In this document: positions 3,872 through 45,775 of the stretch, one piece after another | How the letters are laid out: every line of letters starts with the position of its first letter | How positions within the stretch are numbered: the first letter of the stretch is position 1 | Source: an uncultured Solibacteraceae bacterium | Lineage (GTDB): Bacteria > Acidobacteriota > Holophagae > Holophagales > Holophagaceae | Direction of reading: 5' to 3' | NCBI GenBank assembly: GCA_964434895.1 | Contig: CAYSXG010000001.1 | Coordinates: 1,701 to 65,700, forward strand | DNA: 64,000 nt | Position numbers and translations under genes: made by a program | Notes under the pieces: model-generated | Seen by the model: the letters and a program-made list of their open reading frames with translations, nothing else | Databases searched by the model: none | What the model was told of the DNA's origin: nothing

Positions 3872-4962
3872 GCGGCCTCCTTTCGAGAAGTGGTTTTGGA
3901 TTTGGCCGCCTTGATCGGGTAGATGCGGCCGTAGGGGGTTTTCGGGGTTTCGGTGGTGTGGCTCTGCCGCAGGGCCAGGAGCTCCGCCGGCGGAATGGCG
4001 GCCCGGAGGGCGAGATCGCGGATCACCGCCTCCACGTCCTCATCTCGCTTCTTGCCGAAGCCCTGGAGGGTCCAGCGGTAGGCGGCCCCGTGCAGTTCCT
4101 GGGCGTCGCCCGCGACCAATGCGTTGTCGAGGATGGCCTTGCAGGCCTCCTCCCGGCCCTTCGATGCCTTGATGTCGGCCTGGACTGCGGCGAGATCCAC
4201 CAGGGCCTGGGCCACCTCCCCGGCCGCCTCGATGACGCGCTTTTCTTCGCGCTCCATCCGTTGGAGGAGGAAGTCCCGGGCCTCGCCCAGCATGGTCTGG
4301 CCCTCGGGGCGGACCTGCGGGAGGACGTGGGCCTCCCAGAACCGGATCCCGGCGGCCACTGCCAGCTCGAAAAACTCAGGGTCCGCTTGGAGGTGATAGG
4401 TGCGCTCCTCCACGAGGGCGGCCGCATAGGCCACTTCGTAGGGCAGGCCGCGGCCGATCATGCGCTTGGCCACTTCGAGATCGTAGAAGCCGGCGTGAAG
4501 GTCCCAAAAGGCCCGGCCCGTCAGGCCCATGTACCACTGGCACTGCACCCAGTAGTCCATGGGCACGTCGCCCGAGCCATCGGCGCCCCACTTGGAGTCG
4601 TCCTTCAGCAGGGTCTGTATGTTCGAGGTCTTGATCTCCAGGCCAAGGTCCGCGCGGTCCTGCACCAGGAAATCCGGCGAGCCCAGCAGGAACTCGTGGC
4701 CCGGGTGCCGGACCAGTTCCGGCTTGGTGAGGCTGTACCCCGTGCGGACGGCGTAGCCATGGGCGACCAGCGCTTCCCAGGCGTTCCCCAGATTCATCGC
4801 GAAGGAGGCCGGGGTCTCCAGGCCCTCGACCTTCTTGAGGTAGATGGTGAGGGCGTTCGACCAGGTGGAGGCCCCCAGGATGGCGGCCATGTCCGTGCCG
4901 CCGAGGCCAGTGCGTCGCTCGGCAAGCCAAGCCTCGCGGGACATGGAATTTTCAGCAGACAA
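3868..4962 (-). CDS. YqaJ / lambda-Exo-like recombination exonuclease
   Basis: The track ORF 3868..5397 is over-extended. The homology starts at SREAWLAERRTGLGGTDMAAILG and includes GSPDFLV...LGLEIKT (PD-ExK). I set the start at TTG 4962 just after AAGGAGG; ATG 4944 is the alternative. Confidence 0.8.
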   Translation of the reverse strand: MSAENSMSREAWLAERRTGLGGTDMAAILGASTWSNALTIYLKKVEGLETPASFAMNLGNAWEALVAHGYAVRTGYSLTKPELVRHPGHEFLLGSPDFLVQDRADLGLEIKTSNIQTLLKDDSKWGADGSGDVPMDYWVQCQWYMGLTGRAFWDLHAGFYDLEVAKRMIGRGLPYEVAYAAALVEERTYHLQADPEFFELAVAAGIRFWEAHVLPQVRPEGQTMLGEARDFLLQRMEREEKRVIEAAGEVAQALVDLAAVQADIKASKGREEACKAILDNALVAGDAQELHGAAYRWTLQGFGKKRDEDVEAVIRDLALRAAIPPAELLALRQSHTTETPKTPYGRIYPIKAAKSKTTSRKEAA

Positions 4963-7441: not shown

Positions 7442-8137
7442 GTGTCCGCCCGACAATCCAGCAACTCGAAATCCCGCAGGAAACAGGAAAGGGGCCGCGT
7501 CATTGTCATCGCCAACCTCAAGGGCGGCGTAGGGAAAAGCTCAATCGCAAGTTATCTAGCCGCTTACCTGGAGCAGGATCGAGAGGTAGCCATCCTCGAC
7601 CTGGACGATGGCCAACGCGATTCGGAGCGCTACGCCAAGATGCGGGGCGGCATCCAACTCGCGGCGGCCGGGACCCACGCGGAGGTCTACGATGAGGTCC
7701 AAGCCTTGATTTCCCGCGGGGTGGACGTTGTGGTGGACACCCCCCCGGGGGAGGTCACTGCCTCAAAACTGGCGTTCTACCTGGCGGATGCCGTGGTGAT
7801 GCCAGTGCGCCCTGGTGCCAACGACGTGGCGGCCATCGGTCGGCTCATGTCGATGGTTAACGAGATCCGCGATGAGCGTCCCGATCTGCAAGTCTTCACC
7901 ATCTGCAACTTCTTCAAGGGCAGCCGCGAAGCGACCCTCATGGTGGACATCCTCAAGGTCATGACCAACGCCCAATTTGTGGGCCGACTCGCGGACCGAA
8001 AGGACTATTCGGTGGCCCTTTCCGAGGGGAAGACACCCTGGGAAATCGCGCCTGGGAAGCCTGCGGGAGAGGAGATGCTGGCCCTTTGCGCCTGCCTGGA
8101 TCGCATCATTGAGGTGAATAATGCCAAAGCAAGGTGA
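7442..8137 (+). CDS. parA: ParA/Soj-family partition ATPase
   Basis: 231 aa with a GTG start after AAGGAGG. It has the deviant Walker A motif VIVIANLKGGVGKSS and is the size of a small type Ib ParA. Confidence 0.85.
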   Translation: MSARQSSNSKSRRKQERGRVIVIANLKGGVGKSSIASYLAAYLEQDREVAILDLDDGQRDSERYAKMRGGIQLAAAGTHAEVYDEVQALISRGVDVVVDTPPGEVTASKLAFYLADAVVMPVRPGANDVAAIGRLMSMVNEIRDERPDLQVFTICNFFKGSREATLMVDILKVMTNAQFVGRLADRKDYSVALSEGKTPWEIAPGKPAGEEMLALCACLDRIIEVNNAKAR

Positions 8138-10430: not shown

Positions 10431-11558
10431 GTGACCACCACCACCCCAACCGACCCCGGCATTCTCCAGGGCGTCCTCGTCCCGGAACCTGAATCCGCCC
10501 ATGGCCTGCTCACCCTCGTCCCGGGCCGGGCGCCCCAAGAGCTCTTCACCGACGCGGACGTGGTGGCCCAGCTCCTCACCTGGGTGCGCCAGGAGGCCCA
10601 GGCCTTCACGCCGGACCTCCGCACGAAGAAGGGCCGCGACGAGATCGCCTCCCGCGCCTACCGCGTCGCCAAGACCAAGGCTTACCTTGACGAGGTTGGG
10701 AAAGACCTGGTGGCGGACCTCAAGGAAGCGCCCAAGCGCGTGGACGCTGGGCGGAAGGTACTGCGTGATGGCTTGGACGCCCTGCGGGACGAGATCCGCC
10801 TGCCCCTCACCGCCTGGGAGGAGCGCCAGGACGTGATGAAGCGCCGAGTGGAGCGGATCCTGGCCCTTCCCGCCACCCTACGGGACGCGGATTCGATCAC
10901 GCTCCAATCCTCCATCAAGGCCCTGGACGCCGACCCCATGCAGGAGTCCTCCGAGTGGGGTGAATTCGCCGGTGAGGCCGCGACCGCCAAGGCGGCCACG
11001 TTGCCCCTCCTGCGCAACATGCTGGCGGATGCCATCCGCCGCGAGGCCGAGGCCGCCGAGTTGGAAGCCCTACGGCGCGAGAAGGCCGCCCAGGAGCAGC
11101 GGGACCGCGAGGAGCGGATCCGCCAGGAGTCCGCCGAACGCGCCCAATCCGAGGCGGAGGCCCGGGCCCGGGCCGAACGGGAGGCCGCGGCCCGGCGGGA
11201 AGCCGAAGCCGTGCTGGCCAAGGAGCGGGCCGAGCGCCAGCTTGAGGAGGAGCGCCGGCAGGCATCGCAGCGCGAAGAGCAGGCCCGCCAGGAGGCTGTG
11301 GAGGCCGAGCGGCGCCGCGCCGAGACCGAGCGCCTGGAGCGGGAGCTCAAGGACACCTTCGAGCGCGAGGAGAAGGAACGCCGTGAGGCCGATCTCCAAC
11401 ACCGCCAGCAGCGCAACCGCGAGGCCCTGACAGACCTCATGGGCGTTCTGGAACGGCAGACGGACACCCTGATCTCCAGCCAAGCGAAGGCCATCATCAC
11501 CGCCATCGTGAAAGGCGAGATCCGTAACGTTGGCATCAACTACGGGGTCCAAGCATGA
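10431..11558 (+). CDS. Coiled-coil phage early protein (DUF1351-like by eye)
   Basis: 375 aa with a GTG start after GAGGTGA. It contains a long E/R/A-rich coiled coil (REAEAAELEALRREKAAQEQRDREERIRQE...). Confidence 0.55.
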   Translation: MTTTTPTDPGILQGVLVPEPESAHGLLTLVPGRAPQELFTDADVVAQLLTWVRQEAQAFTPDLRTKKGRDEIASRAYRVAKTKAYLDEVGKDLVADLKEAPKRVDAGRKVLRDGLDALRDEIRLPLTAWEERQDVMKRRVERILALPATLRDADSITLQSSIKALDADPMQESSEWGEFAGEAATAKAATLPLLRNMLADAIRREAEAAELEALRREKAAQEQRDREERIRQESAERAQSEAEARARAEREAAARREAEAVLAKERAERQLEEERRQASQREEQARQEAVEAERRRAETERLERELKDTFEREEKERREADLQHRQQRNREALTDLMGVLERQTDTLISSQAKAIITAIVKGEIRNVGINYGVQA

Positions 11559-11929
11559 ATCGAATCCAGATCAAGGTCGCGCGAGCGGACGGCCTGCCGG
11601 GCTTCGCCGCCTACCTCGCCGAGACGCTTTCCAGCCTTGGCAAAACCACCATCGACCTGGATCCCAACCAGGCCCTGGTGCTGCTCGACGTGGAGGCTAT
11701 CTTCGATGATGAGGCCGTGGTCAGCGAAGATGGAAGCCCCATCCCGCCATCCACTCCCCAGGAGCGAAGGCGGCACATGATCCAGACCCTCATGCATGAA
11801 TTCGGGCACGTCCTGGAGGAGTTCTTCGGGCAGGAATTCGATGAGGACTGGATCGAGAACGTCGTTCAATCCTGGCGGGACCGCAGCGAGCAGGGCCGTG
11901 TCCTGATAATTCACAACTCGGACACGTAA
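11555..11929 (+). CDS. Small acidic protein with an HExxH motif
   Basis: 124 aa with an ATGA overlap to the upstream ORF. The only recognisable motif is MIQTLMHEFGHVLEEF. Confidence 0.5.
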   Translation: MNRIQIKVARADGLPGFAAYLAETLSSLGKTTIDLDPNQALVLLDVEAIFDDEAVVSEDGSPIPPSTPQERRRHMIQTLMHEFGHVLEEFFGQEFDEDWIENVVQSWRDRSEQGRVLIIHNSDT

Positions 11930-12063
11930 ATCGTCGGTAGGCCGCACAGGGCCTCAGTTCTTTGCAGAGCTACGAAATTATCAGACACGCGGTTTTTCTG
12001 GGAAAAGCCGCGGAAACACTACCAACTTTCCAACCGGAAATACTGTCCATCCTCGGAGCATCC

Positions 12064-12249
12064 GTGATCGCCTACCACTACTGCGCCATCAAAGGACTTC
12101 CGGATGGCTCAACAGCCTACTCGGATGGAATCGTCCAGTCAGACCGTCCGATGATGGCTGGCGACCTCCCCAACCTCCGCGCTGAAATCGGAGCCGGGAA
12201 GGGATGGGAAGCTGGCAGTTTCAACATCCTCTCCCTCACCCGTTTGTGA
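12064..12249 (+). CDS. Hypothetical 61-aa protein
   Basis: GTG start 20 nt after TGTCCATCCTCGGAG. The upstream part of track ORF 11962..12249 has poor third-position GC. Confidence 0.45.
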   Translation: MIAYHYCAIKGLPDGSTAYSDGIVQSDRPMMAGDLPNLRAEIGAGKGWEAGSFNILSLTRL

Positions 12250-12921
12250 ATGTCCAATCCTCTTCCCAACCTGAAAGCCCCTCGCATGCGCCAATGCACC
12301 GAAGTCGAATTTCTTGCCGATGTTGCCGCCCACGTCATGACCGTCGAGCATGACGACGGGGTGTTCCGCCACCTGCGCTTCGCCAAGCCCGGCGCGTACT
12401 GCATGTGCTTCATGCTCACGACATGGCCTGGGCACCTGGCCATCAGCGGGGACATGGGAACCTACGTGTTCGACCGCACCCGGGACATGTTCACGTTCTT
12501 CCGCACCAAGCCCGACCGGAATGAGGAATACCCGATTAATCCTCAGTATTGGGCTGAGAAGTGCGAGGCCATGGACACTCGAACCGGCCTCGATGGAAGT
12601 ATCCGGGTTTTCGATGCAGACAGCCTTCGGGCGAACGCAAGGGAAGCCTGGGAGAGCCACTTTGAAGACGACCTTGAGAGCGAGGCGGCGAAGGAGTGCT
12701 GGGAAGCCATCCAAGACGAAGTGTTGCGGTCAGAAAATGGGTATGAGGCATACGAGTCCGCTAGTAATTTCGAGCACGAAGGTTTCCAATTCCATGATTC
12801 CTGGGAATGGAACAACACCACCTATGCCTTCCGCTTCCTCTGGTGCCTCTACGCGATCACCTGGGGCGTCAGGCAGTACGATTCCGCCACCACGCCCGCG
12901 CCGGCCGAAACCAGCCGCTGA
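12250..12921 (+). CDS. Conserved hypothetical protein (223 aa)
   Basis: Track ORF. VMTVEHDDGVFRHLRFAKPG...TTWPGHLAISGDMGTYVFDRTRDMFTFFR looks like a conserved mobile-element family that I cannot name. The start is either ATG 12250 or ATG 12286. Confidence 0.6.
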   Translation: MSNPLPNLKAPRMRQCTEVEFLADVAAHVMTVEHDDGVFRHLRFAKPGAYCMCFMLTTWPGHLAISGDMGTYVFDRTRDMFTFFRTKPDRNEEYPINPQYWAEKCEAMDTRTGLDGSIRVFDADSLRANAREAWESHFEDDLESEAAKECWEAIQDEVLRSENGYEAYESASNFEHEGFQFHDSWEWNNTTYAFRFLWCLYAITWGVRQYDSATTPAPAETSR

Positions 12922-12941
12922 TGTCCAATACGAGGCGCACG

Positions 12942-13277
12942 ATGCCTGACGATAAAAAAGACCCAGCACTCATCCTCCACGAAGCCATCTTCATCTGCGG
13001 GGACTGCCCGGAGTGTGGCTCCGACAACTGGACCGATTGCGAGCAGTATGGCGAATGCCACTCCTGCGGCACGAGGTTCAACCCAACCATTCCACGGCAA
13101 ATGAAGTTGGCTTCACAGGCGCTGGATGCGATCCGCGCCCGCATCTACGAGCTGGAGGGTCGTTGCCAAGAGGCGGAGACAGAGCGCCGCGCATACCGTG
13201 GAGCGCTCCGCGACATCTCAAACGAGACGACCGAAATTGCCCCGTCCCTCTACGCCTACGCCATCCTCAACCCATAA
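12942..13277 (+). CDS. Zinc-ribbon protein with a coiled-coil tail (111 aa)
   Basis: ATG 20 nt after TGTCCAATACGAGG. Cysteine pairs CGDCPECG...CHSCG. Confidence 0.6.
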   Translation: MPDDKKDPALILHEAIFICGDCPECGSDNWTDCEQYGECHSCGTRFNPTIPRQMKLASQALDAIRARIYELEGRCQEAETERRAYRGALRDISNETTEIAPSLYAYAILNP

Positions 13278-13300
13278 TCCTGTCCAGTACGAGGCACCAC

Positions 13301-13519
13301 ATGCAATGGCAACCGATTGAAACAGCGCCGAAGACGCGAGAATTGAAAATCCTGACTTATGGGGTAGTTCCCGAAAACTACGGCTACACGCAAGAAGAGT
13401 GGCTCATCTCGATTTCGGAATGGTGTGGAAACGGCTGGGCTTCCCAGGCTAGTTCGCCTTACGGGAACCGCTTCCAGCCGACCCACTGGATGCCTTTACC
13501 TGAACCACCCACCTTCTAA
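13301..13519 (+). CDS. DUF551-like small protein (72 aa)
   Basis: ATG 20 nt after the motif. WQPIETAPK...PTHWMPLPEPP is the typical DUF551 signature. Confidence 0.6.
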   Translation: MQWQPIETAPKTRELKILTYGVVPENYGYTQEEWLISISEWCGNGWASQASSPYGNRFQPTHWMPLPEPPTF

Positions 13520-13551
13520 ATCATGTCCATCCTCAGTCCCAGGAGAAGCCC

Positions 13552-13755
13552 ATGACTGAAGACCGTTACCACGACCTCGACAAGGTGGTGAGCGCCGAGG
13601 TGCTCTCCAGTCTCAAGGGGCAGGTCATCCCCGAAGTCTGCCCAGTTTGCCGAGGCGAAGGGAAGGATGGGGAACCCGGCGATGAACCCGGTACGGGCTA
13701 CACCTGGGCATGCGAGAACTGCGGCGGCTCCGGCACCATCAACCGGCAGTATTGA
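13552..13755 (+). CDS. DnaJ-type zinc-finger mini-protein (67 aa)
   Basis: Two CxxCxGxG motifs, CPVCRGEG and CENCGGSG. It is preceded by the long motif variant, including a 10-codon upstream ORF whose stop overlaps this ATG. Confidence 0.6.
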   Translation: MTEDRYHDLDKVVSAEVLSSLKGQVIPEVCPVCRGEGKDGEPGDEPGTGYTWACENCGGSGTINRQY

Positions 13756-13757
13756 TC

Positions 13758-13919
13758 TTGTCCAGTACGGAGCACCCCATCGAAGGCGCGGTCTCTTCCT
13801 TGATTGAGGACGCCATCATCGACCGCGTGCTTTCGATCCACCTAGACTCGGACGAACTAGACCTCACCATCAGACCGCGCTCTGTCTACATCGCCTTCGA
13901 ATCCTCCAATCCCATTTAA
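13758..13919 (+). CDS. Small ORF with a non-ATG start (TTG 13758, or ATC 13779)
   Basis: The motif context matches the copy at 14621, but ATC sits where ATG is expected. An in-frame TTG lies immediately upstream of the motif. Product about 53 aa. Confidence 0.35.
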   Translation: MSSTEHPIEGAVSSLIEDAIIDRVLSIHLDSDELDLTIRPRSVYIAFESSNPI

Positions 13920-13947
13920 CTGCAAATGTCCAGTACGAGGACCACGC

Positions 13948-14193
13948 ATGAGCCCACGATTCAAAATCGCCTACGTCCCCTGGTGGCGCCCCGTTCGGCT
14001 GGCGGCATGGTCCACCGACAATGACGGCAAGCGGACGGGCTTCGAGTTTGTCGGCTGGGTTTGGCGCCAGAAAGCCTACCTCGTCAACAACATCCATTAC
14101 GGCTGGATCGCCTTCGTGGAAGACCAACAGCCCGAGAAACTGGAAGTCTGCCCATCCTGCAAGCGCAACCTTCACCTGCCTGTGGGCGAGTGA
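13948..14193 (+). CDS. Hypothetical 81-aa protein
   Basis: ATG 21 nt after TGTCCAGTACGAGG. It has a C-terminal CPSC. Confidence 0.5.
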   Translation: MSPRFKIAYVPWWRPVRLAAWSTDNDGKRTGFEFVGWVWRQKAYLVNNIHYGWIAFVEDQQPEKLEVCPSCKRNLHLPVGE

Positions 14194-14223
14194 ATGTCCA
14201 TCCTCACCCCCAGGAGCCCCGTC

Positions 14224-14388
14224 ATGGACGCCGACCTCTTGCATGATCTGCAACGTCTTATCGACGATGCACCGATGGAAACCGCAGGGATTGCTCTTGC
14301 GGCAAGGGATCTGATCGCAGAACTGGAACGAGAGAATTTCCAACTCAAGGACCGCCTTGAGAAGCCATGCCCAGGCTGTGGGCTGTGA
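14224..14388 (+). CDS. Hypothetical 54-aa protein
   Basis: ATG after ATGTCCATCCTCACCCCCAGGAG. The C-terminus is CPGCGL. Confidence 0.45.
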   Translation: MDADLLHDLQRLIDDAPMETAGIALAARDLIAELERENFQLKDRLEKPCPGCGL

Positions 14389-14407
14389 TGTCCATGAGCT
14401 ACGCACG

Positions 14408-14617
14408 ATGACCAACATCCTCCAGAATCACCCCAAGGGCGCACCCGGAAGCCCAACTGCCATCAACAACGGCTGCAAGTGTCCTGTGATTGACAACGGG
14501 CACGGGCGCGGGATGTACACCGACACGGATGGCATCGCTGTCTACGCGGTGAACCGTGATTGCCCCATCCACCACAACGAAATCGACTGCTTCCCAATCC
14601 CCTTTGAGGAAATGTGA
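14408..14617 (+). CDS. Cys/His-rich 69-aa protein
   Basis: ATG 19 nt after TGTCCA. NNGCKCPVIDNGHG...DCPIHHNEIDC. Confidence 0.5.
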   Translation: MTNILQNHPKGAPGSPTAINNGCKCPVIDNGHGRGMYTDTDGIAVYAVNRDCPIHHNEIDCFPIPFEEM

Positions 14618-14641
14618 GTCTGTCCAGTACGGAGCACCCCC

Positions 14642-14926
14642 ATGGAACCCAAGATCCGCGTGTACCACGATGACCCGTACGAAATCGCGTACACGGTCCT
14701 ATACAACGAACTCAAAATCGACGTTACGAGTTACAGCTCGGACTACCCAAACACTCATCTAGCCGGAGAGACTCGCGTTTCGTGGTGCTGCGGGTTTGGC
14801 GGGATGCGATCCGACCTCTCGGAAGTGGCTGCGGACCTGGAGTGGATGGCTAAGGCTATCCGCGACATCGGACAACTCGGGGCACGATCATGGCTCACCA
14901 TCATTGCTCATACCGTCTTGTCTTAA
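14642..14926 (+). CDS. Hypothetical 94-aa protein
   Basis: ATG 21 nt after TGTCCAGTACGGAG. Confidence 0.5.
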   Translation: MEPKIRVYHDDPYEIAYTVLYNELKIDVTSYSSDYPNTHLAGETRVSWCCGFGGMRSDLSEVAADLEWMAKAIRDIGQLGARSWLTIIAHTVLS

Positions 14927-14950
14927 TCCTTGCCCATCCTCGGAGCACCC

Positions 14951-15406
14951 TTGCCCACCCGTGACCCCATCCCCACCGGCACACGCATCAAGGACAACGA
15001 TCCCCGCGTCACCTACGACCGCATCCTGGAGGTGGTGGAGAGCCTGACCGACGACCTGCAAATGATCGAGGACGCTCTTGCCCGTTTCGGATGCGAGGAA
15101 GGATCTGCCCTCCGCGTGGCGGTTAATCGGGTTTGGAAGGCTTGCGCTGACCTCAACGCCGCCCCCGCCCCCGACTGGATGATCATCGACGCCACCCGCT
15201 ACGCCCTCGGGCGCCGGACGTACCAGGTGTCCGTCACCTGCGAGTGGCTGCTGGCGAACTGGACGGAGGTTCCGGAAGACGCTCGGGAGATCATCCAACG
15301 GGACATCGAGGAAGCCTTCAGGCGCCGTGGCGGCACGGGCGATCCCTACGACCGTGCCGAATGGGATAAGGTCCGCGCCCTCTGGCTCAATGCCAACTCT
15401 TTTTGA
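14951..15406 (+). CDS. Hypothetical 151-aa protein
   Basis: TTG start 20 nt after TGCCCATCCTCGGAG, by analogy with the copy at 12044. The track ORF starts at 14930. Confidence 0.5.
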   Translation: MPTRDPIPTGTRIKDNDPRVTYDRILEVVESLTDDLQMIEDALARFGCEEGSALRVAVNRVWKACADLNAAPAPDWMIIDATRYALGRRTYQVSVTCEWLLANWTEVPEDAREIIQRDIEEAFRRRGGTGDPYDRAEWDKVRALWLNANSF

Positions 15407-15429
15407 TTTTGTCCAGTACGAGGACCCAG

Positions 15430-15642
15430 ATGGGCGACAACCTCAACACATTCCTTACACGGCTCCCTAACCTTCCTCGCCCTGAACCGGGCTGGAAGCC
15501 CAAACCAATCGTCAAGATTGGGACCGAGACCGAATTTGGGACCGTGGAGGGCATGCGGACGCAGGACGGTGAGCGCTTCTACTTCATCAAAGACGCACAG
15601 GGCACCGTTTCTCTGATGCCCGCCTCAGTAATCGAACCCTAA
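15430..15642 (+). CDS. Hypothetical 70-aa protein
   Basis: ATG 20 nt after TGTCCAGTACGAGG. Confidence 0.5.
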   Translation: MGDNLNTFLTRLPNLPRPEPGWKPKPIVKIGTETEFGTVEGMRTQDGERFYFIKDAQGTVSLMPASVIEP

Positions 15643-15666
15643 CCGCGAATGTCCAGGAGCTGCACT

Positions 15667-16113
15667 ATGGCTTTTTCAAAGACCGGAGGCTACACGGGTC
15701 CCGCTCCTAAAAAGGGGGCTCCTCCGTCCAAGCCGCCCACGACTGCGGGGACGCTTGCCACCAAGCCCGCAATCTCCGGGACGAAGGGGCCGGAGGCCAT
15801 TGCTGATCTGGCCCCCCTTGAAGAGGCACTGCGCCGTGCTGAAAGGGCTGAGGCTCATGCCGCTGCGCTGGCGGATCTGGTTAAGGCGGTTGAAGACTGG
15901 GAGTCGTTCATACTCGCCGTGTCCCCCGAGGGGAGGTGGGCCCCACAGGAAGTCTACCTCTCAGAGGCGCTTCGAGCCGCAACTAGCCGATGGCCGAAAA
16001 CCATTGCGGTGCGCGTGGCTGACGAGCGTGCCCGCTGCATCGCCCATGTGGGCCGGTATCTCGTGGGAGAGATTGAAACGCAGGCCGAGCTGCGGCAGAA
16101 GCTGGAGGGTTGA
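15667..16113 (+). CDS. Hypothetical 148-aa protein
   Basis: ATG 17 nt after TGTCCAGGAG. The N-terminal part is Pro/Lys-rich. Confidence 0.5.
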   Translation: MAFSKTGGYTGPAPKKGAPPSKPPTTAGTLATKPAISGTKGPEAIADLAPLEEALRRAERAEAHAAALADLVKAVEDWESFILAVSPEGRWAPQEVYLSEALRAATSRWPKTIAVRVADERARCIAHVGRYLVGEIETQAELRQKLEG

Positions 16114-17071: not shown

Positions 17072-17307
17072 CCCACAATCGCGTGCCCAGGCAGCGCGAT
17101 CAGGAAGGCCCTATAGTCCGCACGGTCGCAGAGCAGGATCACCTCCACGCCGCGGAATTCGGCCGCCACCAACAGGGCCCAGCCGTCCTCAAAGGGTTCG
17201 GCGCCCACCACCCGACCGCAGGAACTGGCCGGAGGCAGCTCCCTTGAGGGGAAAACACGGCGCCCCAGCAGCAGGGCGACCTCCTCACCCCGGAAGGCGG
17301 CGCTCAC
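17068..17307 (-). CDS. Hypothetical 79-aa protein downstream of the recombinase
   Basis: 4-nt overlap with the recombinase 3' end. No motif recognised. Confidence 0.4.
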   Translation of the reverse strand: MSAAFRGEEVALLLGRRVFPSRELPPASSCGRVVGAEPFEDGWALLVAAEFRGVEVILLCDRADYRAFLIALPGHAIVG

Positions 17308-18227
17308 TGGAGACCCGCCGCCATGGCAGTGGCCACTTGGCCGGCCAAATCCTTCCGGTTGTCGTCGTAGATGACCACGGTGGCGATGGACTTGTGGCGG
17401 CTGAACCGCTGGACCACCCGGATGTCATAGCCCGCATCCAGCGCGGCCGTGATGGCGCTGTGGCGGATCCCGTGGGGCCAGACTCGCTTCACGCCGGCCT
17501 TGACGGAGAGGGTCAGCACCACATGCCAGATGGCCCGCCCCGTGAGCGGGGAGGGGTCTTCCGTGCGCCCTGGGTCCAAACGGTGGAAGAGGGGCCCCTC
17601 GGCATCCCCGCGCCATTCCAGCCACGCCTGGAGGGCCTGGCGGGTGCCGGGCGGCAGGGTGAGATCCGTGCGGTCCTCCTGCCCCTTGCCCAAGATGGCG
17701 ATTCGGGAGGCCTGAAGATTCAAGTCCACGAGGCGCAGGGAGGCAACCTCGCCCCGACGAAGGCCCAGGTCGTACAGGAGGCGAAGCATGGCCACATCCC
17801 GGGCCGCCTTCTCCTCGGCTTGGGCGCGGGCGGCCTGGAGCAGGGCCTGGACAACCTCAGTGCCGGGGCCAGCCGTGTTCCGGTAGTGGCTTACGGTCGG
17901 GTAGACCACATCCAATTCGTAGTCGCACACCCGGCCCAGTTGGGCCAGGCGAACGAGGGACCGGAGCGCCTTCAGGCGGGCGTGGACCGTCTGCGGGGCC
18001 CGTCCAGCTTCCTGGAGGGACTTCTGGAACTCCAGGGTGATGGTGGCCGCCTCCAGGCTCCCGCAGGAGGTCAGGTAGGCCACCGCCTGCACCGGCGAGG
18101 TGCCCAACCAGCGGGCGAAAGCCTTCAGGCCATCCCGGTAGACGGCGGCCGTCGCCGGGCTGAGGCGAAGCAGGAATTGCTCCAACAGCCGCTTATGGGC
18201 GGGTTCAATCGTGCGTAAGGCTTGCAT
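17304..18227 (-). CDS. Tyrosine recombinase (XerC/D-like integrase family)
   Basis: 307 aa with the catalytic pattern LGLRRGE (Arg), HGIRHSAIT (HxxR) and SRHKSIATVVIYDD (His...Tyr). Confidence 0.85.
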   Translation of the reverse strand: MQALRTIEPAHKRLLEQFLLRLSPATAAVYRDGLKAFARWLGTSPVQAVAYLTSCGSLEAATITLEFQKSLQEAGRAPQTVHARLKALRSLVRLAQLGRVCDYELDVVYPTVSHYRNTAGPGTEVVQALLQAARAQAEEKAARDVAMLRLLYDLGLRRGEVASLRLVDLNLQASRIAILGKGQEDRTDLTLPPGTRQALQAWLEWRGDAEGPLFHRLDPGRTEDPSPLTGRAIWHVVLTLSVKAGVKRVWPHGIRHSAITAALDAGYDIRVVQRFSRHKSIATVVIYDDNRKDLAGQVATAMAAGLQ

Positions 18228-25685: not shown

Positions 25686-27425
25686 TTACAGGGAAATGGT
25701 CTGGGGGGTCATCACGATGCGGACGGGGATGTACGCCGTTTCCGTGACGGGGTGGGTGTTCACCTGGATGTCCCAGGCGTCGGCGCCATCGCCAACCACG
25801 CTCAGGCCCTCCCACGCGGGCAGGGTCTGACCGTTCTTGGAGCCCTCGGTGAGGACGCCCTGGGGGTTGCGGGAGCCGCGGATCTCGCTGTCCAAGTAGG
25901 CAGCGACGCGGTTCTTGATGCGGTTGGCCGTCTCCAGATCCATGGGGGCACCCACGAAGTCGGAGAGGATGAACTGGAAGGCCTTTTCCAGCTTGAACTG
26001 GATGCGCAGGCCCTGGAGCTTTCGCATCATCACGTTCGGGCCACCCTGGAAGGTGGTGATGGCCTGGATGATGCGGGTGCCACCGGCGACCGGATCGAGG
26101 GCGATGGGAGAGGCACCGGCGACCAGCAGGGCGTTGATGTCGGAATCCTGCGGCGCCGGGAACTCCACGCCTTCGGCGTAGAGGGTCTTGTTCGTCAGGG
26201 GCTCGGAGGCGGTGAGGCCCGCAGCCAGGCCGCAAATCTGCGCGGCGGTGCCGAGGCTGCCGAGGTTCTCCTTGAGGAGGCCCGTGACCGCATTGGTGAC
26301 GAAGGTGCCGTTCCAGGCATAGACGGCGGGGCCGTCCATGGTCTGAGGCTTGGCGGCGGCCTGGGTGGCCGTTTCGCCGGGGGCACCACCCCCGTAGAAG
26401 ATGCGCCAGCGACGGCGGTTGATGGCTCCCAGGGCGATGCAGTGCTGGATCGCCAAGCTCTGGGTGGCGGCGTTCGCCGTGTCCACCATGAGGTGGTCCA
26501 CGTCGATGCCTTCCAGAAGGGCCAGGGGGGCCACGTAGTCGGAGCTGGTCACCACGTCGAGGGCGGTACCGGCGCCGCCCGCAAGGGCGGTTTCCGTGAC
26601 CGCGGACAGGGCGCCGAAAGTGCCCGGCGTGGAGAGCGCGGCGCCCACCATGGCGTCCTGGTACAGCGCGAAGACCACCGAACCCTGGCCGGCGGTGATG
26701 GCCGTGGCGCTGGTGCCGATGGCCGGGGCCGAGGCCAGCACCGGGTTGTCCATCAGGGACACCGGCATCGAGGGGTTGCCCGCGATGGTGGCCGTCCAGC
26801 CGCTGCGGCCGGTGATCCAGGGGATCAGGTTGGCCAGGGTCACATCGTCGGTCGGGTACGGCAGGACGCTCACGATGCTGCCGTTCTCGTACATGCGGGC
26901 CTCGCGGGCCACATGGTCGAAGACCAGCTTGGGCGTGGTGGCCGTCGAGGTGACGGAGAGGCCGAGGCCCACCATGTAGTTCGCAGTGTAGTTCTCGGAG
27001 CGCTTGCGGATGGTGAGGGTGTAGGCGCCGCCGGCGCCGGCGGTGAGGGCCACGGAAATGGCGTTCGTGTGGCGACCGTAGTCGAGGCTGGCGAAGACCA
27101 GGCCCGAGGCGGTCAAGGAGGCTTGGCCCACCGTGCCCACCCGGGTCCAGCGGACGCGGGAGGCGCCGGGCTGGTCCCCGGAGGGGCGGAACATGCGGGA
27201 GATCAGCGCGAGGGCCGTGCCGCCGCGCAGCACCTTTCGGGCATCGGTGAAGGTGGCGAAGTCGTAGATGAAGCCCGGAACACCGCCGTCAGCGGTGCCC
27301 AGGATGGCGATGGTGCCGCCCGGGCCTGGGCGCACCGGAACCATTTGGGAGACATCCGTGTAGGGGTAGACACCCGGGCGTACAACGTAGGCGCCGCGGA
27401 TCATGATGCCGACATTGCCGGGCAT
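25686..27425 (-). CDS. Contractile tail sheath protein
   Basis: 579 aa. The N-terminal PGVY...TIAILG region and the C-terminal ...LLVAGASPIALDPVAGGTRIIQAITT... region are typical of phage sheath families. Confidence 0.8.
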   Translation of the reverse strand: MPGNVGIMIRGAYVVRPGVYPYTDVSQMVPVRPGPGGTIAILGTADGGVPGFIYDFATFTDARKVLRGGTALALISRMFRPSGDQPGASRVRWTRVGTVGQASLTASGLVFASLDYGRHTNAISVALTAGAGGAYTLTIRKRSENYTANYMVGLGLSVTSTATTPKLVFDHVAREARMYENGSIVSVLPYPTDDVTLANLIPWITGRSGWTATIAGNPSMPVSLMDNPVLASAPAIGTSATAITAGQGSVVFALYQDAMVGAALSTPGTFGALSAVTETALAGGAGTALDVVTSSDYVAPLALLEGIDVDHLMVDTANAATQSLAIQHCIALGAINRRRWRIFYGGGAPGETATQAAAKPQTMDGPAVYAWNGTFVTNAVTGLLKENLGSLGTAAQICGLAAGLTASEPLTNKTLYAEGVEFPAPQDSDINALLVAGASPIALDPVAGGTRIIQAITTFQGGPNVMMRKLQGLRIQFKLEKAFQFILSDFVGAPMDLETANRIKNRVAAYLDSEIRGSRNPQGVLTEGSKNGQTLPAWEGLSVVGDGADAWDIQVNTHPVTETAYIPVRIVMTPQTISL

Positions 27426-36441: not shown

Positions 36442-38467
36442 GGGACAGCCCTCCAAAAGCCCCCTGGGCCTTGCTCACATCCACCGCAGACCCGTAAGGG
36501 GAGAGACCGGCATTGGTCCAGCCGTTGGACTGCCCCGCGTTCCCGGCCGTGCCGGGGCCCCGGTTGTAGGCGTCGGAGACGTAGCGCCAGAAGTTGGGGT
36601 CCGATTCGGAGCAGCCCTTCGCCTTGATGGCGTCCTTGCAGACCTTGAGGTAAGCGGCGCCTGCGTCGATGGATTTCTTGTCATCCAAGAGGTCGTCCTT
36701 GGTGATCGGAGTGCCGTCCTGGTTCTTGTAGCCCCGGGCCTGGAGGTCCGCGAGGGCGCCGCTTGGGCCGGTGTTGAGCTGCATGAAGCCCAGATCCCCC
36801 GTGCCATTGACCTTCTTGTAGTTCGGGTTGCGGCCCAGGCTGGATTCCTTGCGGGCAGTCTCGGCCACCAGCCACGCCGGCACGCCGTTCCGGGCGGCGG
36901 CGGCGGCCATCTCCTTCGCGTAGGGCACCCCGGAGGCCCCTGCCCCGCCCTTGTCCCGGCTGGGCTCGGGGTCCCGGCCCGTCTCGTGGGCCTCCATGGC
37001 CTTCTGGTGCGGGGCCTTTTCGTCGCCGCGGTCCTGGTATTGCTTGGGCTGGACGTTGACCAGCGACGCGACCGCGCCGGCGTACCCCGCCACCTTCACA
37101 CCATCCATGGCCCGGGCCAGGCCCAGCGTCGTGGCGGCTCGGAGCCCCTCTTCGGTCCACTGGAAGCTGTGCGAGACCGTGGTGAGGTAGGCCGTGGTGG
37201 GGGAACCAAAGCTGGAATCCTCCACGCGGGTTCCAGGCCGGGCCCCCGGGATGGGGCGGTCGTACTGGCGGCTCTGGTGGCCGAGGAGGTGCAGGGGCGC
37301 CTCCTGAAGGGCCACCCGCTTGAGCACCTCGTTGATGAGCTTCTGGTAGTTCGAGCCCTGGGCCGGATTCAGGTTGCTCCGGACCTGGCGCGGGGCGAAC
37401 CCGTAGCGGTCCATGCCGATTTGGTCCGCCTGCCAGCCGAGATCCATCTTGTAGAACAGGGCCGAGGGGAAACCGTCCACGAAACAGCCCGCCCCCCAAT
37501 GGAAGGCGTTGACCCGGCTCGCGTCTGAAACCTCGTCCATGAGGGCCAGGGCCGAAGGGGCACCGTCCTGTCCCAGGGTAAGGGTCGGGAGCGCGTTCCA
37601 GTCGTCCGTGTCGCCACCGGCCGGGAAGGGGCGCGGACGATGGACCAGGCGATGGCCCTCCTGCCCAGGGTCCCCTCCGTAGACGAGGAAGAGCTCGTGG
37701 AGATCCGGCTCCGCCAGCCCCTGGAGCAGCTCCCAGTAGCTGCCGGACCAGGTGGTGAGCACCCGCTCGGCGGAGTAGGGCCAGGTGCCCTTGTAGTAGC
37801 TCTTCCAGGTGCCGAAGCCGAAGCCGTCCTTGACGGGGCCTGCGGCGGTGGCGAGCTGGATGGTGGGGCCACTTTTCCCGTCGAGGCCCAGGGCGATGGT
37901 CACGAAGGCCTTGATGATCTCGTGGGGGGCCTTGAAGAGCCCGTCCTTCACCAGCTCCTGATAGGCGGGATAGGCCTGCTTGATCCCGTCCGCCACGGCG
38001 CTTCCGAGGCCCAAGGCCCCTTGCCAGTTGTAGACGGCCTGGGAGAAGAGCTTCTTGAACCCTTCGGCTGCGATGGTGAGGCCGAATCGCACCCCACGGG
38101 CCTCCGCTTGGCGCTGGCGCTTGCGCGAGGACACGAAGCCGTCATGGGCGAGGCGGAGCTCACCCTCACCGCTGTAGCCGAACTCGATGCGGAGGTGGTC
38201 ATTGGGCCGAACCAGCTCCGCGAGCTTTTGGGAAAGAGGGGACCATCCGAATTGCAGGGTGCCCGACTGGCCCTCCAGCGCCTCGGAGGTGTGGATGGCC
38301 GTGAGGCCCGAAGGGGCCCCCTCAAAGAGCACATCCGACCCCACCACCAGCTTCGCTCCCTCCCAAGACGTGAAGGTGAAGACGTAGGGCTTCTGGCCCG
38401 GCAGAGTCGGGCTGGTGCTCTCCAGGATCACTTTGAGCCGGAGGAGCAGGACTTCGGGTCCGCTCAC
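36434..38467 (-). CDS. Baseplate hub-like protein with a C-terminal lytic transglycosylase domain
   Basis: GTG 38467 overlaps the upstream stop. The C-terminal SLT motifs are ETARKESSLGRNPNY...GDLGFMQLN...AYNRGPG. Confidence 0.6.
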   Translation of the reverse strand: MSGPEVLLLRLKVILESTSPTLPGQKPYVFTFTSWEGAKLVVGSDVLFEGAPSGLTAIHTSEALEGQSGTLQFGWSPLSQKLAELVRPNDHLRIEFGYSGEGELRLAHDGFVSSRKRQRQAEARGVRFGLTIAAEGFKKLFSQAVYNWQGALGLGSAVADGIKQAYPAYQELVKDGLFKAPHEIIKAFVTIALGLDGKSGPTIQLATAAGPVKDGFGFGTWKSYYKGTWPYSAERVLTTWSGSYWELLQGLAEPDLHELFLVYGGDPGQEGHRLVHRPRPFPAGGDTDDWNALPTLTLGQDGAPSALALMDEVSDASRVNAFHWGAGCFVDGFPSALFYKMDLGWQADQIGMDRYGFAPRQVRSNLNPAQGSNYQKLINEVLKRVALQEAPLHLLGHQSRQYDRPIPGARPGTRVEDSSFGSPTTAYLTTVSHSFQWTEEGLRAATTLGLARAMDGVKVAGYAGAVASLVNVQPKQYQDRGDEKAPHQKAMEAHETGRDPEPSRDKGGAGASGVPYAKEMAAAAARNGVPAWLVAETARKESSLGRNPNYKKVNGTGDLGFMQLNTGPSGALADLQARGYKNQDGTPITKDDLLDDKKSIDAGAAYLKVCKDAIKAKGCSESDPNFWRYVSDAYNRGPGTAGNAGQSNGWTNAGLSPYGSAVDVSKAQGAFGGLSRG

Positions 38468-39663
38468 GCCAGGACCCAGGTGGCGGTGTCCAGGGCGCAG
38501 CGCCAGCCCAGCGTGACGACCGAACCCACGCTGTAGGGGGCGATGTCGGCGGCGACCGGGGGCGCGGTGAAGCTCGGGGCTCCATCCACCACCCGCCAAA
38601 GGTAGAGGTCCACCTCGGCCACATCGGGGTCCGCAGCCTGGAGGATGGAGGAGAGGCGCTGGTAGGAGCAGGTTGCCCCGGCACCCAAGCTCCCAAAGTA
38701 GGCCTGGGCCGTGGCGGTGAGGGCGGCCTGGATGTCGTCCCAGCGGGCCGAGCCGCCGGGGACCAGCTTCACGGCGCCCTGGACCCGCAGGGGCACCCGC
38801 TGGACGCTCATGAGGTTCACCCGGACCCCCGCCACCTTCCAGCCGGGGACTTGGCTGCCATCGTTGGCGATGTAGCCGTTGACCGTGCGCAGGACGGCCG
38901 TGGCCACGTCCGGCTGGACCGAAAGCCCGCCGATCCCATCGTCCACGAAGAGCCAGACCAGGCCCGCATAGGGCACCCCGTCCGGTGTCGGCGTGAGCTG
39001 GCAGGGGTCCACCGTCTTCGCGGAGAGCACCATGCCGGTGCTGAGGGCGGCGTACTCCAGGGCCTCCGCCGTGCCGCGGACCAGGGTGGACACGAAGGCC
39101 TGGAAGCGCACGGCCCGCGCCTCTTCCGTTTCCTCGTTCGCCCCGCCCACAGCAGGGTCCGGGTTCGTCACCAGATCCACACCAGCCACAGGAACGACCA
39201 TGCGGGTCAGCGTGGCGGCCGGGATGTTGCCAGCCGGGCCGGCCTCCAGGGCCTCGGCCATCACCGCAGCCGATACCGCAGCCACCGCAGGGATGGTGGC
39301 ATCGGCCAGGGTGACGAAGCGGGTGCCGCTGGTGGAGATGAGCGCGGCACCCGCTGGCACCGTCAGATCACTGGCGGGGGGCACCAGCGCGGTGAACAGC
39401 ACCGAGACGCGGGCCTTCACCGGAGGCAGGAGGGAGAAGCCGAAGGCGGCGTAGCAGGCCTGGGGAATCGCTTGGGCCAGGGCCTGGGCGGTGCGGACCT
39501 CGTGTTCCTCGATGGAGACGGCCACCGCTTCCAGGTGGGCCCGCTCCAGGGAGCCCGGTACCAGGTCGGACGGGAGCACCCCATCCGCGAGGTCGGGATT
39601 CCCGGCCAGCCAGTTCACCATGTCAAGGGTGATGCTCGAAAAGTCCCGGGGCACGAAGGTCAA
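38464..39663 (-). CDS. Baseplate J-like protein
   Basis: 399 aa. EAGPAGNIPAATLTRMVVPVAGVDLVTNPDPAVGGANEETEEARAVRF is the gpJ/gp6 signature. Confidence 0.75.
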   Translation of the reverse strand: MTFVPRDFSSITLDMVNWLAGNPDLADGVLPSDLVPGSLERAHLEAVAVSIEEHEVRTAQALAQAIPQACYAAFGFSLLPPVKARVSVLFTALVPPASDLTVPAGAALISTSGTRFVTLADATIPAVAAVSAAVMAEALEAGPAGNIPAATLTRMVVPVAGVDLVTNPDPAVGGANEETEEARAVRFQAFVSTLVRGTAEALEYAALSTGMVLSAKTVDPCQLTPTPDGVPYAGLVWLFVDDGIGGLSVQPDVATAVLRTVNGYIANDGSQVPGWKVAGVRVNLMSVQRVPLRVQGAVKLVPGGSARWDDIQAALTATAQAYFGSLGAGATCSYQRLSSILQAADPDVAEVDLYLWRVVDGAPSFTAPPVAADIAPYSVGSVVTLGWRCALDTATWVLA

Positions 39664-42495: not shown

Positions 42496-43941
42496 TTAGT
42501 TGAAGGGCTTCCAGGCAGCGTTGGACGGCAGGACGTTCCGGATGACGCCGTGCTTGCGGGCATCGGGCACCCGCAGGGCACCGAGCAGCATCACCAGCCA
42601 GTTCAGGGAGGCGTCCGTCTGGGCCAGGGGGAACTGGGTCAGCGGCAGCATCTGAAGCCAGGTCATCGCGTTCAGGTTGGGGGCGGAGGTCAGCATGAAG
42701 ACCTCGGAAGTGCCCGGGATGGTGGTGTTCAGGTCGCGCCAGACGGTGGTGCCGCCGGTCTTGGCCACGCGGGCCACCAGGCGCATGTCGGAGGCGGCAT
42801 TGGTGCCACCCAGACGGCCGCGGTAGATCGCGTAGTAGGTTTCGGTACCCCCGGCCGTGATGGTCACGTCGATGGCGCCGCCCGCAGCGACCGTTGCGGC
42901 CGAGACCGTGACGGCGGTGGGGGACACCTGGCCGGCAGACCAGGCCTCCACGCGGTAGTAGTAGGCACCGGCCTGGGCGTTGATCCAGGAGGAGTTCGCC
43001 ACGGTGGGGGCGACGGCCGCGCAGGCCACGGTGGGGGCGGTCAGGGTGGGCGCGTTGGGGTTCGTCACCTCGACGGGGACCTTGTTCTCTTCCACGTAGG
43101 CGTGGGGGATGATCTCGGCGTAGCCCTGGCCGATGCCAACGGCGCTGTAGTTGAAGCCCTTGACCGGGACGCCAGTGACCGTGTTGGGAACGGCGGTGTC
43201 CAGGTTCACGCGGTAGCCGCTGATGAGGCTCTTATCCAGGTCGTACTTGACGTTGGAGCTGGTGTAGAGGAGATCGGGCTTGCCGAACTGGGGGCGCTTG
43301 GCGATGCGCTGGGCGAGGTCCGCGAGCTGCGTGTGGTCGCTGAAGGTCGTGCCCTTCATGTCGATCACGTTTCCGGCGGCGCCGTTCTGGATCAGGGCCT
43401 GGAGGCCGTTGATCTCATAGGTGCTCACGGTGCGGTCGCCGTAGAAGAGGCCCCACTCGATGGTTTCCAGAAGGGTCAGGGCGGCGTTGACGTTCTCCTC
43501 GGAGACCGTGGAGAAATTGGTGGCGCCAGCGCGGTTCTGGAGAACGCCCTGGAGGGCCGTCACCAGGGACACGGAGCGCCGGTCCATGAAGACGCCGAGC
43601 TCCGTCAGCAGGCGCTGATAGTCGCCCTGGCGGTCGGGGCGGCCGGTGCCCTGTTCCGTGGAGAAGGCGCTGCCGGGGAAGCCGCCGATGCCCTTCTTGA
43701 TGATCTGCTGGTCCAGCATGGAGAAGCTGTCCCGCTTGTGGGGCAGCAGGCGGTTGAAGAGGTCGAAGTGCTTGTTCTCGACCGTGACCGAAAAAAGCAC
43801 GGGGTCGAGGTTTTCGACACGGAGCGCACCAGCGCCAGTGAGAGCGGAGAGGTCGGTCCCGGCGCCCTTCGTTCCAGTCAGCGACTTGACGATTTCACGC
43901 GCAGGGCCGCCAAGGGCGGAAAGGATTTCGAGGGGATCCAC
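42496..43941 (-). CDS. Major capsid protein (HK97-fold type, with an Ig/FN3-like insertion)
   Basis: 481 aa, following the protease and scaffold genes. It contains an inserted beta-sandwich-like segment (YYYRVEAWSAGQVSPTAVTVSAATVAAGGAIDVTITAGGTETYYAIYRG). Confidence 0.65.
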   Translation of the reverse strand: MDPLEILSALGGPAREIVKSLTGTKGAGTDLSALTGAGALRVENLDPVLFSVTVENKHFDLFNRLLPHKRDSFSMLDQQIIKKGIGGFPGSAFSTEQGTGRPDRQGDYQRLLTELGVFMDRRSVSLVTALQGVLQNRAGATNFSTVSEENVNAALTLLETIEWGLFYGDRTVSTYEINGLQALIQNGAAGNVIDMKGTTFSDHTQLADLAQRIAKRPQFGKPDLLYTSSNVKYDLDKSLISGYRVNLDTAVPNTVTGVPVKGFNYSAVGIGQGYAEIIPHAYVEENKVPVEVTNPNAPTLTAPTVACAAVAPTVANSSWINAQAGAYYYRVEAWSAGQVSPTAVTVSAATVAAGGAIDVTITAGGTETYYAIYRGRLGGTNAASDMRLVARVAKTGGTTVWRDLNTTIPGTSEVFMLTSAPNLNAMTWLQMLPLTQFPLAQTDASLNWLVMLLGALRVPDARKHGVIRNVLPSNAAWKPFN

Positions 43942-45648: not shown

Positions 45649-45775
45649 GGGGCGAGAGTCAGCCGATTCAAAGCCCCCGTGCCGAGCCGTCCCGCGCCAT
45701 TACGCGATGACGCGAGGCGCCGGGAAATGGGGCCGGAGCACCCGGGGACGCTGGACAGGCAAGAGGAGCGACCGC

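Follow-up and report, generated by a model that had tools for sequence, protein, structure and literature searches.

A strand-specific TGTCCA signal at the boundaries of accessory-gene cassettes in phage early-gene arrays

Short sequences that recur beside many small genes are known from several systems. In phage T4, RegB cuts within the Shine-Dalgarno sequence (SD; GGAG), whereas the sites of RegA, which show little conservation, extend over the start codon. In integron cassettes the core, GTTRRRY, lies 3' of an attC site, an imperfect palindrome of 55 nucleotides (nt) or more. Short repeats beside the gene starts of phage early regions were first described in 2011, and no mechanism has been established for them. 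The start-associated sequence (SAS) of Cluster K mycobacteriophages is 13 bp long, GGGATAGGAGCCC, contains the SD and lies 3-7 bp from the start codon (PMC3203893; 188-genome survey in PMC12699233); its function was not known as of 2025 (PMC12699233). T4-type phages carry promoter-early-stem-loop (PeSL) cassettes of ~100 bp; since every cassette brings a sigma-70 promoter and also a terminator stem-loop, each open reading frame (ORF) forms a separate transcription unit (PMC2839356; PMC4122927). The L5 gp71 stoperators of Cluster A mycobacteriophages are 13-bp sites for a two-domain repressor, with a consensus specific to the immunity group (PMC9283540). Here we describe the hexamer TGTCCA, which stands ahead of every gene in an array of 13 small early genes in a 64-kb stretch of contig CAYSXG010000001.1 (the window) and recurs at gene junctions of 12 further contigs. 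The data establish a real, conserved, strand-specific boundary signal of accessory-gene cassettes.

The TGTCCA array of the window

TGTCCA occurs as 12 exact copies on the + strand, joined by one TGCCCA, over the span 12044-15655, one per gene. The original prediction had placed the motif before 13 of 13 consecutive gene starts, and all its coordinates proved exact. The array, its copies and the preceding hairpin are as follows.

12044-16113, + strand: array of 13 small early genes (46-211 amino acids, aa), non-overlapping, with the motif ahead of each
11939-11964, + strand: terminator-like hairpin with a T-run, 3' of the upstream gene (11555-11929) and 5' of copy 1
12044-12049, + strand: copy 1, TGTCCA-TCCTC-GGAG (12055-58)-5 nt-GTG 12064, without an upstream stop
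12251-12256, + strand: copy 2, TGA (12247-49)-a-TGTCCA, then a 29-nt C/A-rich leader and ATG 12286
12922-12927, + strand: copy 3, TGA (12919-21) abutting TGTCCA-ATAC-GAGG-6 nt-ATG 12942
13281-13286, + strand: copy 4, TAA-tcc-TGTCCA-GTAC-GAGG-6 nt-ATG 13301
13524-13529, + strand: copy 5, TAA-atca-TGTCCA-TCCTCAGTCCC-AGGAG-6 nt-ATG 13552
13759-13764, + strand: copy 6, TGA-tct-TGTCCA-GTAC-GGAG-6 nt-ATC 13779
13927-13932, + strand: copy 7, TAA-ctgcaaa-TGTCCA-GTAC-GAGG-7 nt-ATG 13948
14195-14200, + strand: copy 8, TGA-a-TGTCCA-TCCTCACCCCC-AGGAG-7 nt-ATG 14224
14389-14394, + strand: copy 9, TGA abutting TGTCCA-13 nt-ATG 14408, with a weak SD
14621-14626, + strand: copy 10, TGA-gtc-TGTCCA-GTAC-GGAG-7 nt-ATG 14642
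14931-14936, + strand: copy 11, the transition variant, TAA-tcct-TGCCCA-TCCTC-GGAG-5 nt-TTG 14951
15410-15415, + strand: copy 12, TGA-ttt-TGTCCA-GTAC-GAGG-6 nt-ATG 15430
15650-15655, + strand: copy 13, TAA-ccgcgaa-TGTCCA abutting GGAG-7 nt-ATG 15667

The array genes are typical of accessory or early regions and include DUF551, phrog_4657 and a Zn-ribbon Q-like protein. As had been noted, the copies after the first adjoin the preceding stop codon, with a gap of 0-7 nt in 12 of the 13. An SD (GGAG, GAGG or AGGAG) lies 3' of the motif in 11 of the 13, and the distances from the first T of the motif to the start codon are, for copies 1-13, 20, 35, 20, 20, 28, 20, 21, 29, 19, 21, 20, 20 and 17 nt. 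The two short upstream ORFs described earlier are real: ATG 13523 at copy 5 opens 10 codons that run to 13555 and ATG 14388 at copy 9 opens 7 codons that run to 14411, each overlapping the real start as ATGA. The statement that every motif precedes a gene start requires a qualification at 13759, where no canonical start stands at the expected place. Gene 6 (13758-13919) has ATC 13779 at the spot where the sister junction at 14621 has ATG, and its canonical in-frame starts are only TTG 13758, which lies in the motif and lacks an SD, and TTG 13800; it either uses a non-canonical ATC start or is a decaying gene.

Copy 1 has no upstream ORF. The preceding gene ends at 11929 and is separated from the motif by a 114-nt non-coding stretch, and since the terminator-like hairpin at 11939-11964 precedes copy 1, the array begins a new unit. 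The scan found no recognisable sigma-70 promoter between this hairpin and the array and no promoter inside 12044-16113; the only promoter-like site near the array is on the - strand (12004-11977). No coding-strand terminator-like site was found in the array, where the single such site (15734-15717) is likewise on the - strand. Given the lack of an internal promoter and of a coding-strand terminator, the array is probably read as one polycistronic unit. At the 3' end the motif is missing from the next two junctions after the array (16113/16117 and 16323/16339).

Counted on both strands, TGTCCA is present 47 times in the window as compared with 25.1 +/- 4.6 in dinucleotide shuffles, and 0 of 100 shuffles reached 47. 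Twelve of the 47 copies fall on one strand of 3.6 kb, where ~1 is expected. The remaining 35 all lie inside genes and none at a gene junction, in agreement with the claim that junction copies are confined to the array. Two extended forms, TGTCCAGTACG(AGG/GAG) with six copies and TG(T/C)CCATCCTC with four, occur entirely within 12.0-15.7 kb and are the top direct-repeat families of the array region. They are present in the window as originally described but are not conserved in the other contigs. The conserved part is the hexamer alone (HTGTCCA), with the GTACGAGG and TCCTC...GGAG extensions as local leader families.

Junctions in other contigs and mosaic boundaries

TGTCCA stands co-oriented with the genes at small-gene junctions of 12 further contigs from different metagenomes, with a GC content of 53-68% (L122, L222, L233, L236, L340, L306, L292, L298, L361, L345, L256/L237 and L317), which disposes of the concern that the motif might be a local duplication artefact. 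The window, L122 and L222 share synteny for the gene just 5' of the array (10431-11558, phrog_1376-like), and by tblastn they have no other gene in common. L122, a 43.5-kb viral contig of 60% GC, has 16 exact copies and one TATCCA at the junctions of its downstream array, and L222 (68% GC) has three consecutive junctions with TGTCCA, TGTCTA and TGTCCA. A link between the motif and the phrog_1376-like gene was considered and rejected. The enrichment is absent from 80 other phrog_1376-like loci that were fetched (L124-L203, mostly ~52% GC), so the motif is not tied to this gene; it is also absent from L223 and L224, and L233 and L236 carry the motif without the gene in the sequence examined. The latter two contigs encode homologues of gene 2 of the array, with 70% aa identity in L233 and 60% in L236 (53% GC), and both have runs of TGTCCA junctions. 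Remoter gene 2 homologues (56%) lie in arrays of overlapping stop/start junctions without the motif. Two junction strings common to contigs were used as search keys and retrieved L340, L306, L292, L298, L361, L345, L256/L237 and L317, each of which added 3-10 further junction copies.

Other searches returned little. BLAST of the two junction strings against 50,697 phage records gave chance matches only, as did a search of viral contigs for TGTCCAGTACGAGG, which found chance singletons. The early-gene starts of Thermus phage Lalka8 have no TGTCCA, and counts in the Lalka8 and Cumys genomes show no sign of the motif. Genome-contig scans yielded no useful match, a metagenome scan yielded no motif-bearing locus, and the integrase query yielded one distant locus. 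An unrelated metagenome contig, L227, carries a tandem TGTCCAtcTGTCCAc at 4646-4660 in an AT-rich intergenic region; this may be an operator-like repeat and probably has no connection with the present case.

A strict automatic filter, which demands a stop no more than 8 nt upstream of the motif and an SD and a start downstream, was passed by 79 sites in 13 contigs, the window included (Poisson P ~6e-50 for 79 sites in 25.3 kb). The motif has the orientation of the genes at 79 of 79 sites. The gap from the stop to the motif is 0-8 nt with a mode of 3-4, and in two thirds of copies no more than 0-5 nt separate the motif and the SD. The distance from the motif to the start is 15-66 nt with a mode of 17-21; the near-fixed spacing noted in the original prediction is therefore a property of the leader families of the window and not of the motif. 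Information content is close to zero outside the hexamer, save that G never occurs at position -1 (0/79) and C never at -3. The triplet formed with the first two bases of the motif reads CTG at 42 sites, ATG at 25 and TTG at 12, and its frame relative to the gene is random (33/26/20). Within the window the NTG holding the motif is in frame with the gene in 9 of 13 copies, a bias that disappears over the 79 sites. The lack of frame bias, together with a CTGTCCA junction in L233 that is out of frame, supports the earlier view of a nucleic-acid signal and not a leader peptide.

The hexamer is close to invariant. Exact copies account for ~90% of junction copies, and the ten one-base variants found at true junctions are all transitions (TGCCCA 4, TATCCA 2, TGTCTA 2, TGTCCG 1, TGTTCA 1); the TGCCCA of copy 11 recurs at junctions of L236, L361 and L345. 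Five sense copies in the arrays that failed the filter were found on inspection to be junction copies. With these accounted for, there are no non-junction sense copies in 25.3 kb of arrays, as compared with ~8 expected (P ~3e-4), and there are four antisense copies. In L236, two copies lie within the 3' end of an overlapping upstream gene and still ahead of the next SD. Because these copies precede the next SD from inside the upstream gene, and because the motif stands before the first gene of the array, where there is no upstream ORF, and not after the last, it belongs to the leader of the downstream gene. The unit is TGTCCA-leader-SD-ORF-stop.

Some leaders are structured. TGTCCA-GAUGC-GGGAG-GCAUC-GUG occurs at 14045 and 16847 of L122 and at 799 and 963 of the unrelated L298; its SD sits in a hairpin loop, closed by 5 bp, directly before the GTG start. 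A second hairpin leader, TGTCCA-CUC-GCGGGA-ACC-UCCCGC, occurs at L122 16399, L340 1038 (- strand), L306 8756 and L317 2376, and the L306 version is compensatory (GCCGG/CCGGC). This suggests a conserved RNA or DNA stem directly after the motif in a subset of cassettes.

The contigs share almost no genes. All-against-all BLAST of the ORFs of the 13 contigs gave no family present in more than 3 of 13. Gene 2 is found in three phages with the motif on both flanks and with unrelated neighbours; its start was set at ATG 12286 because of the homologues in L233 and L236. A DNA alignment of the window with L233 shows no similarity 5' of TGTCCA. Identity is ~80% from there on, across the leader and gene 2 as far as the stop codon, and past the next motif the sequences are no longer similar. 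A few other cassettes are common to contig pairs, in differing contexts. Comparison thus lends direct support to the idea, raised in the original prediction, that the motif is a recombination boundary: homology sets in at the motif and ends with the stop codon, and the common genes have unrelated neighbours. The mosaic boundaries of accessory genes coincide with a conserved signal at base-pair resolution, which shows that cassettes are also joined at this element, as they are at the PeSLs of T4-type phages (PMC2839356).

Sequences on either side of the motif also recur. The linkers to its left form recurrent families (TAGCACC, TGAGCC, TAATCC, TGATCT(CT) and TAACCGAA), and so do the leaders to its right. 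Junction strings of 13-26 nt recur between unrelated genes of different phages: CCAGGCCACGGCCTGAGCC directly followed by TGTCCA is found in L122 and L236 and, in closely similar form, also in L233 and L256, and AAGTAGCACC directly followed by TGTCCA is found in at least 9 contigs. One linker family reaches 20 nt into upstream genes that are unrelated to each other. Nearly identical 3' ends of 19-20 nt, CCAGGCCACGGCCTGA-GCC, occur at L122 12274, L236 2886, L233 6649 and L256 8075 and 8213. They code for Q-A-T-A-stop and form a CAGGC-CACG-GCCUG hairpin just 5' of TGTCCA. At least two of the upstream genes that carry them are of different families (phrog_4657 in L233, Nmad5 in L236), and as the same ends sit on different upstream genes, the junction module can extend into the preceding ORF.

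Possible functions of the hexamer

Our tentative preference is that TGTCCA would be the 5' boundary of a unit of both expression and shuffling, read in the mRNA as a single-stranded, strand-specific site by a trans-acting factor. In a group of temperate phages, such units would follow one another head to tail and so make up the early accessory-gene arrays. The factor would most likely be an endoribonuclease that cuts the polycistronic transcript into cistron-sized pieces, each beginning just 5' of a leader, or else a regulator of translation in competition with the 30S subunit; in either case the hexamer would double as a crossover point for the exchange of cassettes between phages, a role suggested by its being the only sequence common to otherwise unrelated junctions. 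The position and orientation of the motif, its conservation across unrelated phages, its coincidence with mosaic breakpoints, its lack of a structural role and its depletion from array ORFs are observed; the RNA level and the nature of the factor we infer. Near-invariance across phages of 53-68% GC with almost no genes in common and strand-specific depletion from the array ORFs argue for sequence-specific recognition over mere microhomology. A position at the 5' edge of every leader, at a variable distance from the SD and without a structural role, best fits a single-stranded RNA site for a processing enzyme or a translational regulator, with a logic like that of T4 RegB/RegA.

Several points weigh against this preference. 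The function is deduced from sequence alone, the site is only 6-7 nt long, and 35 ordinary copies elsewhere in the window show no sign of depletion. The variable SD distance argues against a fixed-geometry contact with the ribosome. No reader protein co-occurs in the motif-bearing contigs (ORF BLAST over 13 contigs, which are partial loci). Most of the additional contigs were found with strings that contain the motif, so that their first site is ascertained and the other 3-9 are not. The comparative facts are equally expected of a purely DNA-level connector, and both this connector and a stoperator-like roadblock (PMC9283540) are live rivals.

The connector, which we hold to be somewhat unlikely, would consist of TGTCCA and its linker families as a plug for swapping promoterless cassettes, with no role in expression; swapping would proceed by microhomology or short-homology recombination or through a dedicated recombinase, and the plug would be kept since its carriers join an exchange network. 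The coincidence of mosaic breakpoints with the motif speaks for it, as do the motif-bounded gene 2 between different neighbours in three phages, the shared junction strings between unrelated genes, the single-strand-annealing/exonuclease recombination genes that these phages encode (YqaJ and RdgC in the window) and the precedent of the PeSL elements (PMC2839356). Six bases, however, are too few for homologous recombination, which requires no particular sequence. Nor does the plug account for the strict strand-specific depletion in array ORFs, with none elsewhere in the genome, or for the exclusion of G at position -1, which looks like recognition by a reader. The junctions have neither inverted repeats nor attC-like palindromes (none local to the window junctions), no recombinase is common to the contigs, and there is no integrase match near the L122 array among the ten ORFs scanned. 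An improbable variant makes the array a phage counterpart of integrons. In it, TGTCCA would serve as the crossover core for a dedicated exchange of cassettes, with a site-specific recombinase or a specialised annealing/nicking activity that moves TGTCCA-leader-ORF units as mobile cassettes from one temperate phage to another, unrelated one, and the need for identical crossover regions would keep the hexamer invariant. No IntI-type integrase was seen at the head of the array; the tyrosine integrase of the window lies past its tail. A stoperator-like role, in which a repressor or another protein bound to DNA would halt elongating transcription of the array in the lysogen, as happens in Cluster A mycobacteriophages, seems rather improbable. 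The phage is temperate, with an integrase at 17304-18227, and asymmetric sites in short intergenic spaces, all oriented along transcription, are defining traits of the L5 sites (PMC9283540). On the other side, only 6-7 bp are conserved as compared with 13 bp for L5, for which 13 bp alone are not stably bound (PMC9283540), and the L5 consensus, GGTGGMTGTCAAG, fits no junction copy within 3 mismatches. The same site in 13 phages without a common regulator in the sequence examined would imply shared immunity, and no copies were seen in a promoter or operator position.

Two further explanations are highly improbable. In one, TGTCC would pair with the SD region (GGAC or GGAGCA) until a ribosome terminating upstream melts the stem and couples translation. 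Weak GUCC/GGAC or UGUCC/GGAGCA stems of -2 to -6 kcal/mol are predicted at several window junctions, and the motif lies within the footprint of a terminating ribosome. Junctions with the native hexamer, however, are predicted to fold no more stably than those with a permuted one (mean z +0.27, n = 79), so an SD-sequestering hairpin was rejected; the native motif is unpaired slightly more often than the permuted controls (0.55 vs 0.52). Many copies abut the SD (TGTCCAGGAG), which makes pairing with it impossible, and the motif also stands ahead of the first gene, where no upstream ribosome terminates. The other explanation is a promoter or initiator for each gene, read by a host or phage RNA polymerase, or a Met-Ser coding sequence, ATG-TCC-A, of mis-called starts. 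Of the 13 window copies, seven have an ATG ahead of the motif and nine are in frame, and automatic gene callers begin gene 2 at ATG 12250. Against both, the SD comes after the motif. A sigma-70 promoter, or an opposite-strand -35 mimic (TGGACA), was ruled out as there is no conserved -10 at any distance; no -10/-35 matches occur at the junctions, nothing is conserved upstream of the linker, and no RNA polymerase gene was detected among the window ORFs scanned. The leader peptide or mis-called Met-Ser start likewise fails, as the motif codon is CTG in 42 and TTG in 12 of 79 sites in random frames, the homologous L233 junction is out of frame, and in L122 the DUF5131 Pfam match begins at residue 8 of the protein with an SD-led ATG, 36 nt 3' of the motif ATG.

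Other pairing schemes were also rejected. With a fixed RNA partner, six of the ten variants seen at junctions (U to C, G to A) would lose a pair, so that no wobble signature is present, and extended pairing with the 3' tail of 16S rRNA would put the motif on the wrong side of the SD. A scan with the Rfam 15 covariance models gave only a sub-threshold chance match inside a gene (CRISPR-DR41, E = 0.76).

The TGTCCA case may be easier to study than earlier repeats, as the signal is a hexamer only, almost invariant and common to phages with almost no shared genes. Because it is common to such phages, its reader must either come from the host or be a phage factor that is exchanged very widely. As a site of RNA processing or translational control, the hexamer would define a switch that acts on accessory genes as one regulon; as a connector, it would explain how ORFan cassettes spread between phages. 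Under either reading, stop - 0-8 nt - HTGTCCA - SD can serve as a simple search key with which to find such cassettes in metagenomes and set their limits.

The phage and comparison with known systems

The window has a G+C content of 66% and covers nearly all of a 65.7-kb contig, which is also found in the Logan assembly of run SRR12313477. Judged from the gene content of its ORFs, the phage is a myovirus, and it is read as temperate because of its integrase. Its main landmarks are as follows.

25686-27425: tail sheath
38464-39663: baseplate J
42496-43941: major head protein
17304-18227, - strand: tyrosine integrase, 1.2 kb past the tail of the array and not at its head

The window ORFs also encode a YqaJ exonuclease, an RdgC-like protein, a ParA-like ATPase and two very large DarB-like proteins. 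The closest cultured relatives by structural genes are the Thermus myophages Lalka8 and Cumys, with 30-35% aa identity. A capsid homologue with 54% identity lies on a 331-kb contig, P0195, labelled 'MAG: Acidobacteria bacterium'; this match is the sole pointer to the host lineage and is best taken as a lead. The two giant ORFs (45608-50155 and 51544-56382; 1515 and 1612 aa) are similar to proteins of Thermus phage Lalka8 that are annotated as DarB-like anti-restriction proteins. Zeta-toxin and methyltransferase domains occur in one of the two ORFs, a helicase C domain in the other. The ParA/MipZ-like ATPase (7442-8137) occurs in a phage that also bears an integrase, a combination that may point to a plasmid-prophage lifestyle or a partition module. 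Near the contig end, a tRNA-Met gene (62721-62795, - strand) adjoins an HNH-repeat protein (60801-62132).

Among the described systems, the Cluster K SAS was named in the original prediction as similar in arrangement and different in sequence, and the comparison stands in concept. Both elements are short and asymmetric, lie in one orientation directly upstream of many non-structural gene starts, are conserved ahead of different gene families and across subgroups, and are absent from structural operons. At the 79 sites, TGTCCA has one orientation, is confined to small-gene arrays and lies between unrelated neighbouring genes, as expected of an SAS-type element. The SAS consensus is absent from the junctions; at no more than 2 mismatches it has 2 matches in the window (28251 and 36349), none at the array, as compared with a chance expectation of 4.2. 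Unlike the SAS, TGTCCA is 6-7 nt long, stands apart from the SD and 15-66 nt from the start, hugs the upstream stop and has no 17-bp inverted repeat like that of the extended SAS (ESAS). Whereas SAS carriers form one cluster, the carriers of TGTCCA are mosaic phages that share almost no genes.

Stoperators resemble TGTCCA in their many asymmetric copies, located in short intergenic spaces of a temperate phage and oriented with transcription, but in TGTCCA 6-7 nt are conserved and the site is common to unrelated phages. Integron cassettes resemble the TGTCCA arrays as promoterless, co-oriented small ORFs with a short conserved core that are spread across different carriers. The arrays differ from them in having no attC palindrome or inverse core and in carrying the core 5' of the ORF leader; the reverse complement, TGGACA, has one copy in the window array, at 12572. 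Closer in logic are the RegB and RegA targets, which, like TGTCCA, are short sequences in the leaders of many early cistrons, where one trans-acting phage factor reads the mRNA and controls a whole temporal class. TGTCCA differs from them in lying 5' of the SD and in being almost invariant.

The PeSL cassettes offer the parallel for the array as a whole. TGTCCA differs from them in having no intergenic promoter or coding-strand terminator, and in being a hexamer only, within an intergenic space of 20-70 nt. In both systems, conserved intergenic elements flank small ORFans in hyperplastic regions, and the boundaries of insertion or replacement fall at the element, as is seen here between the window and L233. 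The PeSL element serves both expression and modular shuffling, and the same double role is proposed for TGTCCA.

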